A DNA stretch of 64,000 nucleotides from a virus: IMG/VR virus record IMGVR_UViG_3300042731_007021, positions 17,162 to 81,161 of that record. One strand, given 5' to 3'. Position numbers and translations under genes: made by a program. Below, piece by piece: positions 60,985 to 64,000 of the stretch. How positions within the stretch are numbered: position 1 is the first letter of the stretch; each line of letters begins with the position of its first letter. Under the pieces are notes generated by a model. That model searched no databases. It was not told the DNA's origin and saw only the letters and a program-made list of their open reading frames with translations.

Positions 60985-61026
60985 GGTTTCAATCCGGTTT
61001 ACTGGTTATGGTCGCCCGTTATGGCG

Positions 61027-61209
61027 CTAATCATAAACGCCGACGCTTGTTTTCATCTCGCAGCGCGAGCAGGTCCAAGTTACATAGGTGTCGTGTTCAT
61101 CCTTTGTCTCAGGTGGATAGTCGTGATCGCAATCTGGATCGCCGCCGCTTGTGCTCACGTCGTGAGGACAACAGTAGTCTGGTAACTCTATTTTTCGTGA
61201 TGCTGTCAT
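61027..61209 (-). CDS. Cassette ORF, small Cys/His-rich protein
   Basis: CCPH, CDHDY, CSRC; GGAG RBS. Confidence 0.65.
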   Translation of the reverse strand: MTASRKIELPDYCCPHDVSTSGGDPDCDHDYPPETKDEHDTYVTWTCSRCEMKTSVGVYD

Positions 61210-61250
61210 GTTTGTATCTCCGTAGATAGTCGCGCCATTTAGCTAATTCG

Positions 61251-61484
61251 TTACCTTGCCCTAGTGTTCCAATCTGCAATAACGTCCCGCTTAGTGCCCC
61301 GTCGCATGGATACGCAATAGTTTATACATCCAATGCGCCATGTCGGGCGCTTAGTAGGGGTCTCATTTACCGCAGGAGCAGCTGGTGCCCCGCAAAAGGG
61401 GCAAGGTAACAAGCAAGTCAACTCGGACGCTGCGCGTCCTTGCGCCTGGTCGAGTTCGCCATCTCCTGGTAGTCCGTCGCCCAT
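61251..61484 (-). CDS. Cassette ORF, Lar-like restriction-alleviation protein
   Basis: LLPCPFCG...CINYC...IADWNTRA motif; AGGAG RBS and ATG lie inside the attC. Confidence 0.75.
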   Translation of the reverse strand: MGDGLPGDGELDQAQGRAASELTCLLPCPFCGAPAAPAVNETPTKRPTWRIGCINYCVSMRRGTKRDVIADWNTRAR

Positions 61485-61528
61485 ATCAGCTCCTGTGGCG
61501 CGTAGCGCCGGTTACTTTGTCGTTATAA
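61404..61528 (+). other. attC site (125 bp)
   Basis: AGGTAAC-aagca-AGTCAACT...GGTTACT-ttgtc-GTTATAA; inner stem cggacgctgcgcg/cgcgtagcgccg. Confidence 0.85.
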
Positions 61529-61702
61529 ATCCGTTTTTATCTTGCTACACGCTTCTACAAATTCGCGCATTGCCTTGGTAGTGTCTTCGGCAGCCTGCTT
61601 CACGCCAACCATCGCCGCCTTTAATTTTTCCGCTTCCATTTTCAAGGCTTCGATTTTTTCCATTGCTTCGGTGGTGTCTATTTTCAGTTCGGCCTTTGCC
61701 AT
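61523..61702 (-). CDS. Cassette ORF, 59-aa helical protein (not in ORF track)
   Basis: MAKAELKIDTTEAMEKIEALK...SKIKTDL*; GGAG RBS; stop TAA formed by the core site. Confidence 0.7.
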   Translation of the reverse strand: MAKAELKIDTTEAMEKIEALKMEAEKLKAAMVGVKQAAEDTTKAMREFVEACSKIKTDL

Positions 61703-61723
61703 TTCGGTTTCTCCAAAAAGTAT

Positions 61724-61798
61724 TTATAACAAGTCGTATCAGTTCGCTTCGCTTGGGACTTCCGCTTACGCTCCAGCCCCTGTACTCAGTTGTTATGG
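61724..61798 (+). other. attC site (75 bp)
   Basis: TTATAAC-aagtc-GTATCAGT...CCTGTAC-tcagtt-GTTATGG. Confidence 0.8.
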
Positions 61799-62209
61799 CG
61801 TTATATTCCACTTTGCCAATTCAATAGCTTTCCGCTTGGTCTCTAAATGAGCCTCACCAAATCCAGAGCATTGATTCTGAAAGTAAGTTATCTCTTCGCC
61901 TGCTTGCTGTATCGCTCTTAGGTAATACTGCTCTACCCATGAGTGGTCAAAAACAAACCGACCTTGTGCGGTTCCTCGCTCAAATACCTTATCTGGCTGT
62001 CTCGGGTCGATTACTACCGTTTCAATTTCAAAACCGCGTTCTCTGCACATGTTTTGTACGCGCTTTGCCTCCACATGGTCTGCAAAAGCCACCCGGTCGC
62101 CTTCTTTCAAGGCTTCAACCATTGCTACTGTTCTACCTGTTCTGCGTGCTGATTGAAAATATGTGTATGCCATGCCTTTCATTGCTTGGGCAATTCCAAA
62201 AATATCCAT
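61793..62209 (-). CDS. Cassette ORF, hypothetical protein with P-loop-like RRTGRT
   Basis: Start revised to MDIFG (GGAG RBS); stop in core site. Confidence 0.75.
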   Translation of the reverse strand: MDIFGIAQAMKGMAYTYFQSARRTGRTVAMVEALKEGDRVAFADHVEAKRVQNMCRERGFEIETVVIDPRQPDKVFERGTAQGRFVFDHSWVEQYYLRAIQQAGEEITYFQNQCSGFGEAHLETKRKAIELAKWNITP

Positions 62210-62239
62210 CGTCGTTTCTCCAAAGTTGTACCAATCGCG

Positions 62240-62302
62240 CCATAACAAGGCGCATCAAACGGACGCGCAAAAACCGCAGGCCCTTGTGCTAATTCGTTAG
62301 AA
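62240..62302 (+). other. attC site (63 bp)
   Basis: CCATAAC-aaggc-GCATCAAA...CTTGTGC-taattc-GTTAGAA. Confidence 0.85.
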
Positions 62303-62304
62303 CG

Positions 62305-62514
62305 CTACTTGCAGTTCACTGGCTTTCCTTTATCCGTCAGTTTCACGGAGAGAACAGCCTTCATTGCAAAATTCGCGTACCAGTATTCATGCCCATCAAG
62401 GCACACGGTGTCGTAGTCGTCGGGGTCACTTCCCAATGTCCAAGTCTTGTAGATCATGGTTCCAAAGAAACCCATCATCACCACTACAGCCAGCCATAAA
62501 AGTCCGTCTTTCAT
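62305..62514 (-). CDS. Cassette ORF, small membrane-anchored protein
   Basis: N-terminal TM helix, VCLDGHEY...GKPVNC; GAGGT RBS. Confidence 0.75.
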   Translation of the reverse strand: MKDGLLWLAVVVMMGFFGTMIYKTWTLGSDPDDYDTVCLDGHEYWYANFAMKAVLSVKLTDKGKPVNCK

Positions 62515-62526
62515 TTGAACCTCGCG

Positions 62527-62579
62527 TTCTAACAAGTTGGTCAGGCCGCCTTCGGCCGCCGCTTACCTCGGCGTTATGC
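62527..62579 (+). other. attC site (53 bp, short)
   Basis: TTCTAAC-aagtt-GGTCAGGC...GCTTACC-tcggc-GTTATGC. Confidence 0.8.
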
Positions 62580-62780
62580 GTCGTCATCAGCAAACCAAAC
62601 AGTCACCACGGATAGCGGCGGAACAACCAGGCCAGCACCGTGAATCATTTCGCATTTGTAGTTTGATTCAAAATCGCAAGATGCTAGTTTTACGGAATTC
62701 CAAATCCACGAACCGCCGCCAATCACAATGACGAATACAACAATCAGTTCAATCATGGTAAAACCTCTTTGCTTTTTCAT
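62574..62780 (-). CDS. Cassette ORF, prepilin-type N-terminal cleavage/methylation protein
   Basis: MKKQRG-FTMIELIVVFVIV class III signal; stop in core site. Confidence 0.8.
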   Translation of the reverse strand: MKKQRGFTMIELIVVFVIVIGGGSWIWNSVKLASCDFESNYKCEMIHGAGLVVPPLSVVTVWFADDDA

Positions 62781-62810
62781 TTCCATTTCTCCAGTTAAAT
62801 TAAATAAATC

Positions 62811-62912
62811 GCATAACAAGCGCATAAACTCCGACCCAAAAAGCAGTTGGCATCCGCGCGTTAATCAAGCATCGTGGCCCGCTTTTTGGGAGGGTTATGC
62901 TTCACGTTAACT
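62811..62912 (+). other. attC site (102 bp)
   Basis: GCATAAC-aagcg-CATAAACT...GGTTATG-cttcac-GTTAACT; stem cccaaaaagc/gctttttggg. Confidence 0.9.
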
Positions 62913-62914
62913 GT

Positions 62915-63088
62915 CTATTCTATAACTACCTCAATATCTTCAGGGATACCGAAGGGTTTATCACAGATTTCGCATTCTGAGTCCCCGCCACGAGGGTCAG
63001 AAAGCCAGCCTTGATTTTCAAACCCGCAGTGCGGGCAAATGATCTTCGCGTTGTAGCTGTTAAGTATGAATTTCTTTGCTTGTTCCAT
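62915..63088 (-). CDS. Cassette ORF, 57-aa Zn-ribbon protein (not in ORF track)
   Basis: MEQAKKF...CPHC...CEIC...EVVIE*; GGAG RBS. Confidence 0.7.
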   Translation of the reverse strand: MEQAKKFILNSYNAKIICPHCGFENQGWLSDPRGGDSECEICDKPFGIPEDIEVVIE

Positions 63089-63107
63089 AGGTTCTCTCCG
63101 ATAAAAC

Positions 63108-63169
63108 GACTAACAATTATATCCAGCCGACCTTCGCTACGCCCAGGCTGCTGATAATTGCCGTTATAA
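63108..63169 (+). other. attC site (62 bp)
   Basis: GACTAAC-aatta-TATCCAGC...GCTGATA-attgcc-GTTATAA. Confidence 0.88.
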
Positions 63170-63376
63170 CGCTTCCAGTTGCTTTTGCACCCATTGTCTC
63201 GCCGCTATCCTAGCCTGCGCCGCACTCTTTAGTCCTTCCGCAATCGGAAAAGATTTTCTCGGTTTTGTGTGCGGGTTATCAGGAATCGTCGGATCATCAA
63301 ACAAACATTGCCCGTCAATGCGAGCAAAATACCCATTGCTACATTTTCCAATATATAATTTTGGGTTCATTTCCAC
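63164..63376 (-). CDS. Cassette ORF, hypothetical protein
   Basis: GAGGT RBS; stop in core site. Confidence 0.7.
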   Translation of the reverse strand: MEMNPKLYIGKCSNGYFARIDGQCLFDDPTIPDNPHTKPRKSFPIAEGLKSAAQARIAARQWVQKQLEAL

Positions 63377-63390
63377 ACTTTTACCTCGCG

Positions 63391-63437
63391 TTATAACAAG
63401 TTAATCCAGTGCGAGCTTCTCTTCGCTCGCCATTATG
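63391..63437 (+). other. Truncated attC (R'', L'' and inner hairpin present; L' and the G of R' lost)
   Basis: TTATAAC-aagtt-AATCCAGT-gcgagc...gctcgc-cATTATG. Confidence 0.6.
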
Positions 63438-63621
63438 TGCCTTCAACCTTCAGGGTTTCGCGCTCAAATACTCCAGGCAATTTGTTGAGCCGTATTTCCA
63501 CCTCTACTCCTTGGTAGGTAATAATGCAGCTCGGGTCGTCACCAGCGTCCAGTAAAGTGCCGAAGTTTTGTAAATGGTCTGCCAGCCATGCTTTTGCAGG
63601 CTGTTGTAAATCTGCAATCAT
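63433..63621 (-). CDS. Cassette ORF, hypothetical protein (start revised to MIADL)
   Basis: AGGAGG RBS. Confidence 0.7.
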   Translation of the reverse strand: MIADLQQPAKAWLADHLQNFGTLLDAGDDPSCIITYQGVEVEIRLNKLPGVFERETLKVEGT

Positions 63622-63643
63622 GTTTCTCCTCCTGCGCACAGGC

Positions 63644-63703
63644 GCAGAACAATGTTATCTAGTTGATCTCGCTATGCTCAGCGACAAAGTTCAGTCGTTA
63701 GGC
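63644..63703 (+). other. Degenerate attC (60 bp)
   Basis: GCAGAAC-aatgt-...tcgct/agcga hairpin...tcagtc-GTTAGGC; L boxes pair poorly. Confidence 0.55.
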
Positions 63704-63877
63704 ATCCTTGCATTTACCTACTGGAGGCACCCATTTGTATCCAGTAACTCGCATCCATAAATAATCTGTCTGCCTGGTTTGCTGTGCGCCACACCGACTA
63801 CATACCCGCTTAGGGTCGGCCACCAGCCCCAAAACTCCTTGGTCGACGGGTTGCCAATCGTGCTTACGGTTATTCAT
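63698..63877 (-). CDS. Cassette ORF, small Cys/His protein (start revised to MNNRKH)
   Basis: KHDW...CSRCG; stop TAA in core site GCCTAAC. Confidence 0.65.
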   Translation of the reverse strand: MNNRKHDWQPVDQGVLGLVADPKRVCSRCGAQQTRQTDYLWMRVTGYKWVPPVGKCKDA

Positions 63878-64000
63878 ACAGGCATCCTCGATCAATAGAC
63901 TCCGGTTTCCACGTCCGCAACTTCGGCGCTTACCAAAAAAAAAAAAAAAAAAAAAAAAAAAAAAAAAAAAAAAAAAAAAAAAAAAAAAAAAAAAAAAAAA

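Follow-up and report, generated by a model that had tools for sequence, protein, structure and literature searches.

An attC cassette array of reversed gene polarity in a phage contig without a detected integrase

At the right-hand end of a viral contig (IMG/VR record IMGVR_UViG_3300042731_007021, of which the 64,000 nucleotides analysed here, positions 17,162 to 81,161, are called the window), ten small open reading frames (ORFs), all on the minus strand, fill positions 61027-63895 and are separated by imperfect palindromes. An initial annotation took this region for an integron-type attC cassette array, which raises the questions of whether the palindromes are attC sites, whether the array belongs to the phage, and how its genes could be moved and expressed. 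Integrase-less attC clusters in virulent phages were described by Qi et al. (2023; PMC9892861), and in the available part of that report IntI1 recombined five of six tested phage attC sites. The kind of array is thus already known. New here is its polarity: the whole array is reversed relative to bacterial integrons.

The sites were searched with a covariance model (R2). Its training set was 54 attC matches taken from 19 intI-adjacent bacterial stretches, the window contributing nothing, and it was run over all 64 kb on both strands (128 kb searched) with filters off. Six matches at E<0.05 (1.3e-6 to 0.038) and a seventh at E 0.9 were obtained at the positions claimed initially, all on the plus strand at 61403-63703. 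The remaining nine rows from the whole window and both strands (E 3.5-9.6, at most 10.4 bits) all lay outside the array, and no minus strand mirror matches were found within it. A model derived from four class 1 sites alone (R1) picked up three window sites, all on the plus strand. As a held-out control, R2 recovered all seven class 1 attC sites of phage P1 MH445380 with the strand correct. Furthermore, in 21 intI-adjacent stretches the intI direction correctly predicted the strand of the stronger match at every site; matches to the opposite strand either mirrored strong sites at a lower score or were short partials near the E limit. The attC strand call is reliable.

All six sites initially described as intact are R2 matches, each starting one base earlier than claimed, and two of them, B and C, fold poorly. 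As single-stranded DNA, sites A and E formed long stems and sites F and D shorter ones. Site A (61403-61528, 126 nt; R2 35.6 bits, E 2e-6) carries R'' AGGTAAC and R' GTTATAA and folds at -19.6 (plus) and -21.4 (minus) kcal/mol; the start of a Lar-like ORF sits inside its variable loop. Site E (62810-62911, 102 nt; R2 25.6 bits, E 6.1e-4) folds at -16.4 (plus) and -17.6 (minus) kcal/mol. Site F (63107-63169, 63 nt) is the best match (R2 36.3 bits, E 1.3e-6; R1 22 bits, E 0.0031), with a 5' arm similar to class 1 attC sites, and site D (62526-62579, 54 nt; R2 29.3 bits, E 7.5e-5; R1 19.3 bits) is short, with a GC hairpin. These four look intact, so that about four sites could still recombine. 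The other three are degenerate, their L boxes being unpaired in the minimum-energy folds: site B (61723-61798, 76 nt; R2 18.4 bits, E 0.038; R1 20.5 bits) keeps its cores and folds at -5.4 kcal/mol; site C (62239-62302, 64 nt; R2 21.3 bits, E 0.0073) has a degenerate stem with several non-standard pairs in the R2 alignment; and site G (63643-63703, 61 nt; R2 12.8 bits, E 0.9 for the whole window and 0.043 for the array alone) had been called degenerate from the start. By model ends the seven sites, all on the plus strand, span 54-126 nt, close to the 53-125 bp first given.

Three further remnants had been proposed on the plus strand, near 61004, 61231 and 63391. By eye, 63385-63440 retains a 5' half (R'' and L'') and a hairpin with no R' GTT, and 61205-61262 a 3' half only, which shares 12 identical bases with the site C 3' end; the one at the left array edge (60990-61040) shows little beyond a GTTAT and is doubtful. 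None of the three gave an R2 match at E<=10. Sites B, C and G and the remnants appear to be decaying, and the array would therefore be partly fossil.

What the sites conserve is structure, not sequence. Inverted AAC and GTT core boxes occur in all seven model-matched sites and the three core pairs are invariant, while among the sites the strict consensus RYYYAAC is matched nowhere and GTTRRRY only at 63697. Standard pairs make up 83% of the pair cells, with changes on both sides in 12 of 21 pairs over the seven sites; in the L-helix, both-side changes occur in 11 of 14 pairs and 89.5% of cells pair in this model-fitted alignment. The covariation score reached 0.401; shuffles gave 0.141, with none of 500 attaining the observed value, and slid partners at most 0.111, although the seven-site alignment, being fitted to R2, leans towards the structure. 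The folds of A, D, E and F support the L-helix. Extrahelical bases of the R''/L'' arm set strand choice in attC sites. In the R2 alignments both single-base 5'-arm bulges are filled in A, E and F, as the model fills them by construction, and in D the first is filled and the second falls within an omitted stretch; comparison of the two arms by hand showed extrahelical bases plainly in A only. The model matches and the covariation support the identification of the palindromes as integron-type attC sites, and bear out the initial reading of an attC-type array of ten small ORFs.

The same features could in principle belong to phage intergenic hairpins, such as terminators, processing sites or promoter stem-loops, that converged on attC. 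The sites do lie between co-transcribed genes, at each of them the hairpin is followed on the mRNA strand by a T-rich CTTGTTA, and one site is terminator-like (62268-62250). However, a model trained beside bacterial intI genes finds the array sites and nothing else in 64 kb, asymmetric features appear to be kept (AACAA after R'', the 5'-arm bulges), and sites of the same style adjoin a bona fide IntI in a Mu-like phage contig (L016, described below). The promoter scan was not above shuffles (1 against a mean of 4.6) and the terminator scan not clearly so (8 against 3.7, sd 1.9). We therefore consider convergent hairpins very unlikely.

The phage identity of the contig is supported by genes for a large terminase, portal, major head protein, tape measure, tail fibre J, primase and PolA. 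The phage looks siphovirus-like and virulent; it comes from wetland metagenomes. The array is located in a leftward-transcribed early/accessory block. No tRNA genes were found, nor any close phage relatives in three collections. The window is probably short of the whole genome, because the 138-aa protein of the array is on record on an 81,161-base contig.

Since the array stands at the contig end and is followed by a run of A, a bacterial CALIN joined to the phage contig by assembly had to be considered. The run (66 A at 63935-64000, outside the array) is padding or an end artefact. A 1678-nt contig from a run of another study (X2) spans 60651-62328, across the junction of phage and array, with 0 differences; this unbroken contig shows that the junction is not a chimera. 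Moreover, X2 covers all 30 bins to 63934, a Logan contig of run X1 extends 27 letters past 63934, and coding strand, gene size and G+C (0.46-0.48) carry on from the phage block into the array, whose cargo is phage-like. An assembly chimera is thus extremely improbable. The array is identical in X1 and X2, with no joints or variants reported, but because contigs drop rare variants this is weak evidence against ongoing exchange.

In a canonical cassette, a promoterless ORF lies on the attC top strand with the attC downstream of it. In the window, R'' to R' reads on the plus strand and all ten ORFs lie on the minus strand, a gene strand backed by Pfam matches, PHROG matches and homologues; in the six intervals between model matches the longest ORF was antisense to attC every time and never co-oriented. 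Since the genes lie opposite the attC strand, these cassettes are not canonical. The attC anatomy given initially is correct for the plus strand, but the opposite strand of the genes had been missed. The bottom strand of attC is the one folded and recombined by integron integrases. As the top strand here is the plus strand of the window, the bottom strand corresponds to the coding (minus) strand of the phage.

Each gene ends no more than about 10 nt from the G/TT crossover, or directly at it, and starts 13-35 nt from the R'' of its own attC; six of the ten ORFs use the TTA of an R'-type G/TTA core as their stop codon. The site anatomy and the model scores are the same as in sedentary chromosomal and mobile arrays (21 bacterial genomes and the class 1 array of P1 MH445380), and one gene per cassette with a stop in or beside the TAAC core is likewise shared with bacterial arrays. 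Unlike those arrays, the window has no intI that could be found and its gene polarity is reversed; expression would have to come from phage transcription.

The cargo, as judged from protein matches, is phage-like, in support of the initial view of phage accessory genes. ORF 1 (61027-61209, 60 aa) is Cys-rich, with weak zinc-finger Pfam matches only (E 0.013). ORF 2 (61251-61484, 77 aa) is a Lar-like candidate for restriction alleviation; it scores 25.7 bits with PF14354 (E 1.4e-5), short of the 28.6 cut-off, also matches phrog_599 (E 9.9e-6), and stops at the TTA of an R'-type G/TTA. ORF 3 (61523-61702, 59 aa), with weak coiled-coil Pfam matches only, is probably helical or a coiled coil and stops at the TTA of the site A R'. 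ORF 4 (61793-62209) encodes the 138-aa protein, a member of a conserved phage family without assigned function, with 45 homologues, and with 21 IMG/VR loci and six bacterial loci; its AlphaFold2 model (pLDDT 87.3) matched no PDB fold at E<=0.001. ORF 5 (62305-62514, 69 aa from ATG) has one hydrophobic helix and matches phrog_7163 (E 0.0032). ORF 6 (62574-62780 from ATG, 68 aa; whole ORF 62574-62825) carries a prepilin-type N-terminal methylation motif (PF07963, N_methyl; 29.3 bits, cut-off 21.2). ORF 7 (62915-63088, 57 aa) has two CxxC pairs and matches phrog_16376 (E 2.4e-11), and ORF 8 (63164-63370, 68 aa from ATG), which stops at the TTA of the site F R', matches phrog_25727 (E 6.3e-9). ORF 9 (63433-63621, 62 aa from ATG) gave no family match in Pfam and PHROG searches, and ORF 10 (63698-63877, 59 aa from ATG) contains a CxxC and stops at the TTA of the site G R'. 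Two of the cassette ORFs match PHROGs of unknown function. Apart from the 138-aa protein, none of the cassettes was found in any of the loci retrieved for comparison.

The integrase was sought with an HMM built on 35 IntI proteins; all stop-to-stop frames of at least 50 aa were searched with --max. As the initial annotation had stated, no tyrosine recombinase was found in the 64-kb window (best IntI-HMM E 3.5); in two other contigs, ordinary phage integrases were recognised by this HMM (2.8e-13 and 7e-7). The rule for a CALIN, as quoted in the available part of PMC4889954, asks for at least two attC sites that share a strand, are spaced by less than 4 kb and have no intI in their vicinity. Seven plus strand matches within 2.3 kb, with no tyrosine recombinase in 64 kb, place the array under this rule; with no IntI match in the window, it is not a complete integron.

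A complete integron does exist in L016, the contig IMGVR_UViG_3300014205_000342. Its genes are arranged as GemA, Mor, six attC sites (minus) with ORFs on the plus strand, intI (plus; TIGR02249, 414.5 bits, cut-off 265), and endolysin with holin. The geometry from intI to attC is canonical and the ORFs alone are reversed. L016 resembles the window in this reversed polarity and in its attC style, and one of its cassettes encodes a homologue of the 138-aa protein (54% identity). It differs in having its own IntI just downstream of the array and in being a temperate Mu-like phage, whereas the window is without IntI and looks virulent. Inverted cassettes are also known from chromosomal integrons, e.g., toxin-antitoxin cassettes with their own promoter (PMC13108822). 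According to the available part of that source, they share with the window an ORF antisense to attC and expression independent of Pc. They are scattered exceptions in canonical arrays, whereas here the whole array is inverted and carries phage accessory cargo, and they have their own promoter, whereas no sigma-70 promoters were seen here, the promoter scan not exceeding shuffles.

Taken together, we regard a genuine CALIN in a phage, reversed in polarity, moved by IntI in trans and partly fossil, as the fairly probable reading. The data establish the attC identity of the sites, the polarity, the lack of an integrase in the window and the physical link of the array to the phage. On who recombined the cassettes, when, and whether this still happens, we infer the following. 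Ten one-gene cassettes, delimited by seven model-recognisable attC sites and three remnants, would owe their formation and movement to an IntI-type integrase that works on the bottom strand in its folded form. This integrase would act in trans and come from a host integron, as the initial annotation had proposed, or from one carried by a phage, like that of L016, and expression would rely on phage read-through transcription, not on an integron Pc promoter. If only this polarity is expressed in such an array, phages would maintain a separate pool of cassettes in which anti-restriction functions abound.

A less likely but appreciable possibility is that the array is wholly fossil, i.e., a one-off block or an ancient acquisition from a phage-borne or bacterial integron, whose sites are now inert intergenic relics, perhaps retained as RNA hairpins, on which no integrase would act in this phage. 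Consistent with this, three junctions keep remnants only, the folds of B, C and G are not those of attC, two samples of separate studies carry one and the same array, and the window has no integrase and, among the loci compared, no cassettes shared elsewhere. Nevertheless, A, D, E and F retain their cores, a stem and apparently a bulged 5' arm, and their R2 scores of 25.6-36.3 bits lie within the range of live intI-adjacent arrays (19.5-54.6 bits, the latter scored with R1). The great differences in length and sequence among the sites are expected if cassettes came separately, and turnover could well go unseen in as few as two samples.

The polarity was also surveyed by a longest-ORF rule, not a gene caller. 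Bacterial intI-adjacent arrays (at most the first 6 kb next to intI, from one taxonomic class, and not bacterial CALINs) gave 32 co-oriented, one inverted and 22 ambiguous strict calls. The 65 de-duplicated IMG/VR loci gave 21 co-oriented, 65 inverted and 81 ambiguous calls among 167 intervals; a single attC 5' motif served to pick these loci, which therefore stand for one attC family. Of the 25 IMG/VR arrays that had two or more strict calls, 18 were mostly inverted, five mostly co-oriented and two tied. Five of ten large antisense ORFs in the survey were DNA methyltransferases. Reversed polarity is general in viral contigs without being universal in phages, as Tetrasphaera phage TJE1 and Shewanella phage M16-3 are canonical.

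The available part of PMC9892861 describes TJE1, Polaribacter phage P12002L and Pseudoalteromonas phage PH101 as lytic-type and likewise carrying attC without intI, with methyltransferases as anti-restriction cargo comparable to the Lar-like protein here; it is silent on reversed polarity. TJE1 has three attC sites and four ORFs there, and the array in the window is larger, with seven model matches and ten cassettes. R2 detects the three TJE1 sites, and the ORFs of TJE1 are co-oriented with attC, whereas all those of the window are antisense. In P12002L, one R2 match (30004-30059, plus strand, 17.4 bits) lies between two minus strand methyltransferase genes, so that these genes are antisense to their attC site too.

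A search of window positions 60000-64000 against Rfam (E ≤ 1) gave no match and returned no attC-like family; covariance models were therefore built from bona fide attC sites. The first, R1, was derived from four 61-nt attC sites of the class 1 integron on phage P1 MH445380, which is named in Qi et al. 2023, and was then iterated; a seed obtained by aligning seven class 1 sites with MAFFT was dropped, being inconsistent with the structure. R1 was applied to 21 stretches on the array side of intI genes (TIGR02249 above cut-off) in bacterial genomes and gave 96 matches, each site matching more strongly on the strand predicted from the intI direction. 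What matched on the other strand was either a weaker mirror of a strong site or a short, partial match close to the E limit. A direct-repeat search in one of these stretches yielded nothing useful. The second model, R2, was trained on 54 matches from 19 of the 21 stretches and on none from the window, and it recovered all seven held-out class 1 sites of P1 on the correct strand, including two long sites which R1 had not listed.

R2 was run on both strands of the full 64 kb with filters off. The array of attC sites proposed in the initial annotation was borne out by this independent model, with seven matches, all on the + strand: A (61403-61528, 35.6 bits), B (61723-61798, 18.4 bits), C (62239-62302, 21.3 bits), D (62526-62579, 29.3 bits), E (62810-62911, 25.6 bits), F (63107-63169, 36.3 bits) and the weak G (63643-63703, 12.8 bits, E 0.9). 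The next best match elsewhere had 10.4 bits (E 3.5); a short palindrome with this score at 7523-7546, which has TAAC...GTTAGGC ends and no stem between them, is probably due to chance. In an alignment fitted to the model, the L-box helix of the seven sites carried compensatory changes in 11 of its 14 pairs over divergent sequence, and the covariation score was 0.401, compared with 0.141 for shuffles and at most 0.111 for slid partners. When folded as single strands, A and E formed long stems, D and F formed short stems, and B, C and G left their L boxes unpaired. The seven sites first described as six intact and one degenerate were the same seven that R2 matched, but two of those called intact, B and C, leave their L boxes unpaired. 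The three remnants described along with them had no R2 match and are half-sites or less. Judged from these features, about four of the ten junctions look competent, three eroded and three relics. A junction sequence, ACCTCGCGTTnTAACAAG, is common to 62510-62533 and 63375-63404, where a reverse-complement Shine-Dalgarno abuts the R'' box.

The polarity of the genes relative to the sites was a point missed by the initial annotation. The region 61027-63895 is occupied by ten small ORFs, all of them on the - strand. On the coding strand of class 1 cassettes the order is R''-AACAA...L'' (with bulged bases)...L'...C-GTT-R'; in the window the R''...R' order reads on the + strand and every gene lies on the - strand, opposite the attC top strand. 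By their predicted products these genes are real, because they include a Lar-like domain, an N_methyl motif, members of two PHROG families and, in the fourth ORF (61793-62209, -), a 138-aa protein whose family has 45 homologues. For six of the ten ORFs the stop codon coincides with the TTA behind the G of an R'-type G|TTA core; for the other four it lies within about 10 nt. The distance between a start codon and the R'' box of the next site is 13-35 nt, or else the start falls within the loop of site A. Each gene therefore fills its cassette exactly, on the bottom strand, and the array is most likely a CALIN (a cluster of attC sites without an integron integrase) of reversed polarity. The 138-aa protein gave a good AlphaFold2 model (pLDDT 87.3), for which Foldseek found no PDB chain at E ≤ 0.001. 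When 14 window proteins were compared by tblastn with all retrieved loci, the sole match, the 138-aa family aside, was to a prepilin motif, and blastn-short of the window attC sites found matches of 16-24 nt and none longer. Scanned for promoter and terminator consensus sequences, the array was not clearly above shuffles.

The array is carried by a tailed-phage contig, which encodes a large terminase (gpA ATPase), portal, major head protein, tape measure and tail fibre J on the + strand and a primase, SNF2 and SF1 helicases, PolA and an SMC-like ATPase on the - strand. No tRNA was found in the 64-kb window, and a recombinase search agreed with the earlier statement that no tyrosine recombinase ORF is visible in it. 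The nearest isolated phages are Vibrio phages, with a TerL identity of only 36.8%. The array had no blastn match in 50,697 phage records, and no close relative of the phage was found by protein-pattern scans of IMG/VR (936-aa primase and 138-aa cassette protein) or of JGI metagenomes. The contig is probably incomplete, because an ORF runs off the left end of the window and an identical copy of the 138-aa protein is on record on an 81,161-base contig. The final 66 bases (63935-64000) are all A, which is either padding or an artefact of the assembly end; a Logan contig continues for 27 letters past 63934. Near the left end, the C-terminal 160 residues of a 756-aa protein (1842-4112, -) match PHROGs of DNA methyltransferases or parts of very large phage proteins; this protein had no Pfam match at 1e-5.

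The same stretch is present in two public wetland metagenome runs from two studies, here X1 and X2. In X2, which is not the likely source, contigs cover every bin up to 63934, and one contig of 1678 nt spans 60651-62328 with no differences, joining the last ordinary phage gene to the first three sites. G+C and coding strand are unbroken from the phage block into the array. A chimeric join of phage and array, which the initial annotation had named as a possible refutation, is contradicted by the bridging contig and by this continuity. No cassette variation was seen between X1 and X2 in the contigs, which are blind to rare variants, and this sameness was therefore not counted against exchange. 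Two other contigs touch the array. A 393-nt contig from X1 matches only the 48 bases of 61389-61436, which cover the 5' arm of site A together with the beginning of the Lar-like core, and differs from there on; it is a related cassette or gene of the same community in a different setting. Another contig from X2 joins the ACCTCGCGTTnTAACAAG motif to 61724-61756, with dissimilar sequence on either side.

Homologues of the 138-aa protein were found in 21 IMG/VR loci and six bacterial loci. In L016, L022, L007 and L008/L018, R2-matched attC sites adjoin the homologue, in every case on the strand that does not carry the ORF. A 118-kb contig rated complete, L022 has terminal repeats and three strong attC sites of 50-62 bits. 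L016 (IMGVR_UViG_3300014205_000342), a Mu-like phage contig, holds a complete integron at 8736-12026, between Mor and the endolysin; the contig runs GemA, Mor, six attC sites (-) with ORFs (+), a 323-aa IntI (+), endolysin and holin, and the IntI scores 414.5 bits with TIGR02249 (cut-off 265). Since the intI-to-attC geometry of L016 is canonical and the ORFs alone are reversed, this locus gives independent support for the strand call. An enrichment of IntI in bacterial genomes with a 138-aa homologue was set aside: four of five such genomes carry IntI, but so do 147 of 401 sampled in that class.

Integrons are viewed as devices of bacteria, in which a single promoter reads all cassettes in one direction, and phage CALINs have been reported before as rare, small and structurally typical. 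According to Qi et al. 2023 (PMC9892861), the only work on integron components in phages that the literature searches found, 10,705 phage genomes yielded one In0, three complete integrons, and 17 CALINs that each hold two or more attC sites; IntI1 recombined five of six sites, from three virulent phages. Integrase-less phage attC clusters had thus been reported, and an attC array in a phage without an integrase is of a known kind. Tetrasphaera phage TJE1 and Shewanella phage M16-3 show canonical polarity, unlike the window, while the virulent Polaribacter phage P12002L has a sole, weak R2 match (L224:30004-30059, +, 17.4 bits) between two - strand methyltransferase genes, and its polarity is reversed as in the window. 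In the accessible portions of the published sources, reversed gene polarity in phage attC arrays was not found; tables S1, S2 and S4 and file S1 of Qi et al. 2023 may hold orientation data. Similarly, neither the abundance of such arrays in IMG/VR nor a complete integron in a Mu-like phage was found in the portions available, including those of PMC4889954, 10.1101/2022.09.11.507474 and 10.1101/2024.07.02.601686.

A scan of IMG/VR with a 22-letter motif of the attC 5' end gave at least 120 stretches, and 80 loci among the matches listed (L104-L183) were surveyed; these contigs may include bacterial flanks. At E ≤ 0.01, R2 gave 260 matches, spread over 69 of the 80, and a single locus held as many as 12 sites. 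When the longest ORF between neighbouring sites was taken, the listed viral loci had 51 co-oriented and 125 inverted intervals and four without an ORF, against 49, 10 and one for the intI-adjacent bacterial arrays together with the P1 class 1 array. Under a strict rule (ORF at least half of the interval and at least 1.5x the best ORF on the other strand), the bacterial arrays had 32 co-oriented, one inverted and 22 ambiguous intervals and the listed viral loci 21, 67 and 84 (Fisher p 4e-14), a comparison that rests on a crude rule for ORFs, on a single attC family and, on the bacterial side, on a single class. After four duplicate loci were dropped, the viral counts were 21, 65 and 81 in 65 loci; by array, 18 were mostly inverted, five mostly co-oriented and two tied. 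On this sequence survey, attC arrays are common in IMG/VR contigs, and most of those in the listed loci have ORFs predicted to be antisense. The antisense ORFs of the viral arrays are likewise real genes by prediction, because five of the ten large ones are DNA methyltransferases and their stops again fall on the R' TTA. The flanks of the viral arrays are phage-like, with a tail protein, RecT with YqaJ and a large serine recombinase. Several IMG/VR cassettes are orphan DNA methyltransferases.

To our knowledge, no other process generates G|TT-delimited units with attC-type sites. Because of this, and because an IntI-family integrase stands beside the same kind of array in L016, we infer that the window cassettes must owe their creation or movement to an integron-type integrase. 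Such an enzyme would act on the window array in trans, its possible sources being the host, a resident phage or a co-infecting one. Expression would come from leftward phage transcription through the array, because the array continues a long - strand block and a consensus scan of it showed no sigma-70 promoters.

For the prevalence of reversed polarity, one testable idea builds on published work. PMC13108822 reports that recombination of the bottom strand exceeds that of the top strand about 10^3-fold, that the bottom strand folds more readily on the lagging-strand template, and that chromosomal arrays hold it on the leading-strand template and are thereby stabilised; inversion of the Vibrio cholerae array showed how attC orientation is linked with the direction of replication or transcription and with the rate of recombination (PMC13108822). 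Phage cassette genes would lie on this recombinogenic bottom strand. In a block transcribed, and probably replicated, in one direction, the bottom strand would be both the non-template strand and the lagging-template strand and could fold. The arrays would then be highly recombinogenic while the brief lytic cycle lasts, quite unlike chromosomal integrons, whose orientation stabilises them. Polarity would also form a barrier to expression, phage cassettes being silent if captured by a host integron and host cassettes silent if captured by a phage. Phage-borne integrases, such as that of L016, together with host IntI could drive a phage-to-phage trade in anti-restriction genes (orphan methyltransferases and Lar). 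Taken jointly, the proposal that phage attC arrays are a reversed-polarity pool distinct from that of bacterial integrons, recombinogenic in lysis, barred from expression and holding anti-restriction genes traded by IntI is a tentative one, to which we give rather less than an even chance.

If phage arrays are usually reversed, pipelines which assume co-oriented cassette genes mis-annotate them, and phages own a cassette pool made up largely of counter-defence genes; this pool would be exchangeable by integron integrases, yet unexpressed in bacterial integrons. Such arrays would also serve as a natural experiment on how attC orientation and the direction of replication or transcription bear on recombination rate. 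Because attC sites flag accessory and anti-restriction genes, the arrays are useful for gene finding and offer a simple route to such genes in phages. Besides L016, one further arrangement was observed on a viral contig (L131:8933-13068), in which IntI lies on the same strand as the attC sites and the ORFs; with this inverted-integrase geometry, too, an integron carried by a phage can be read in a single direction.
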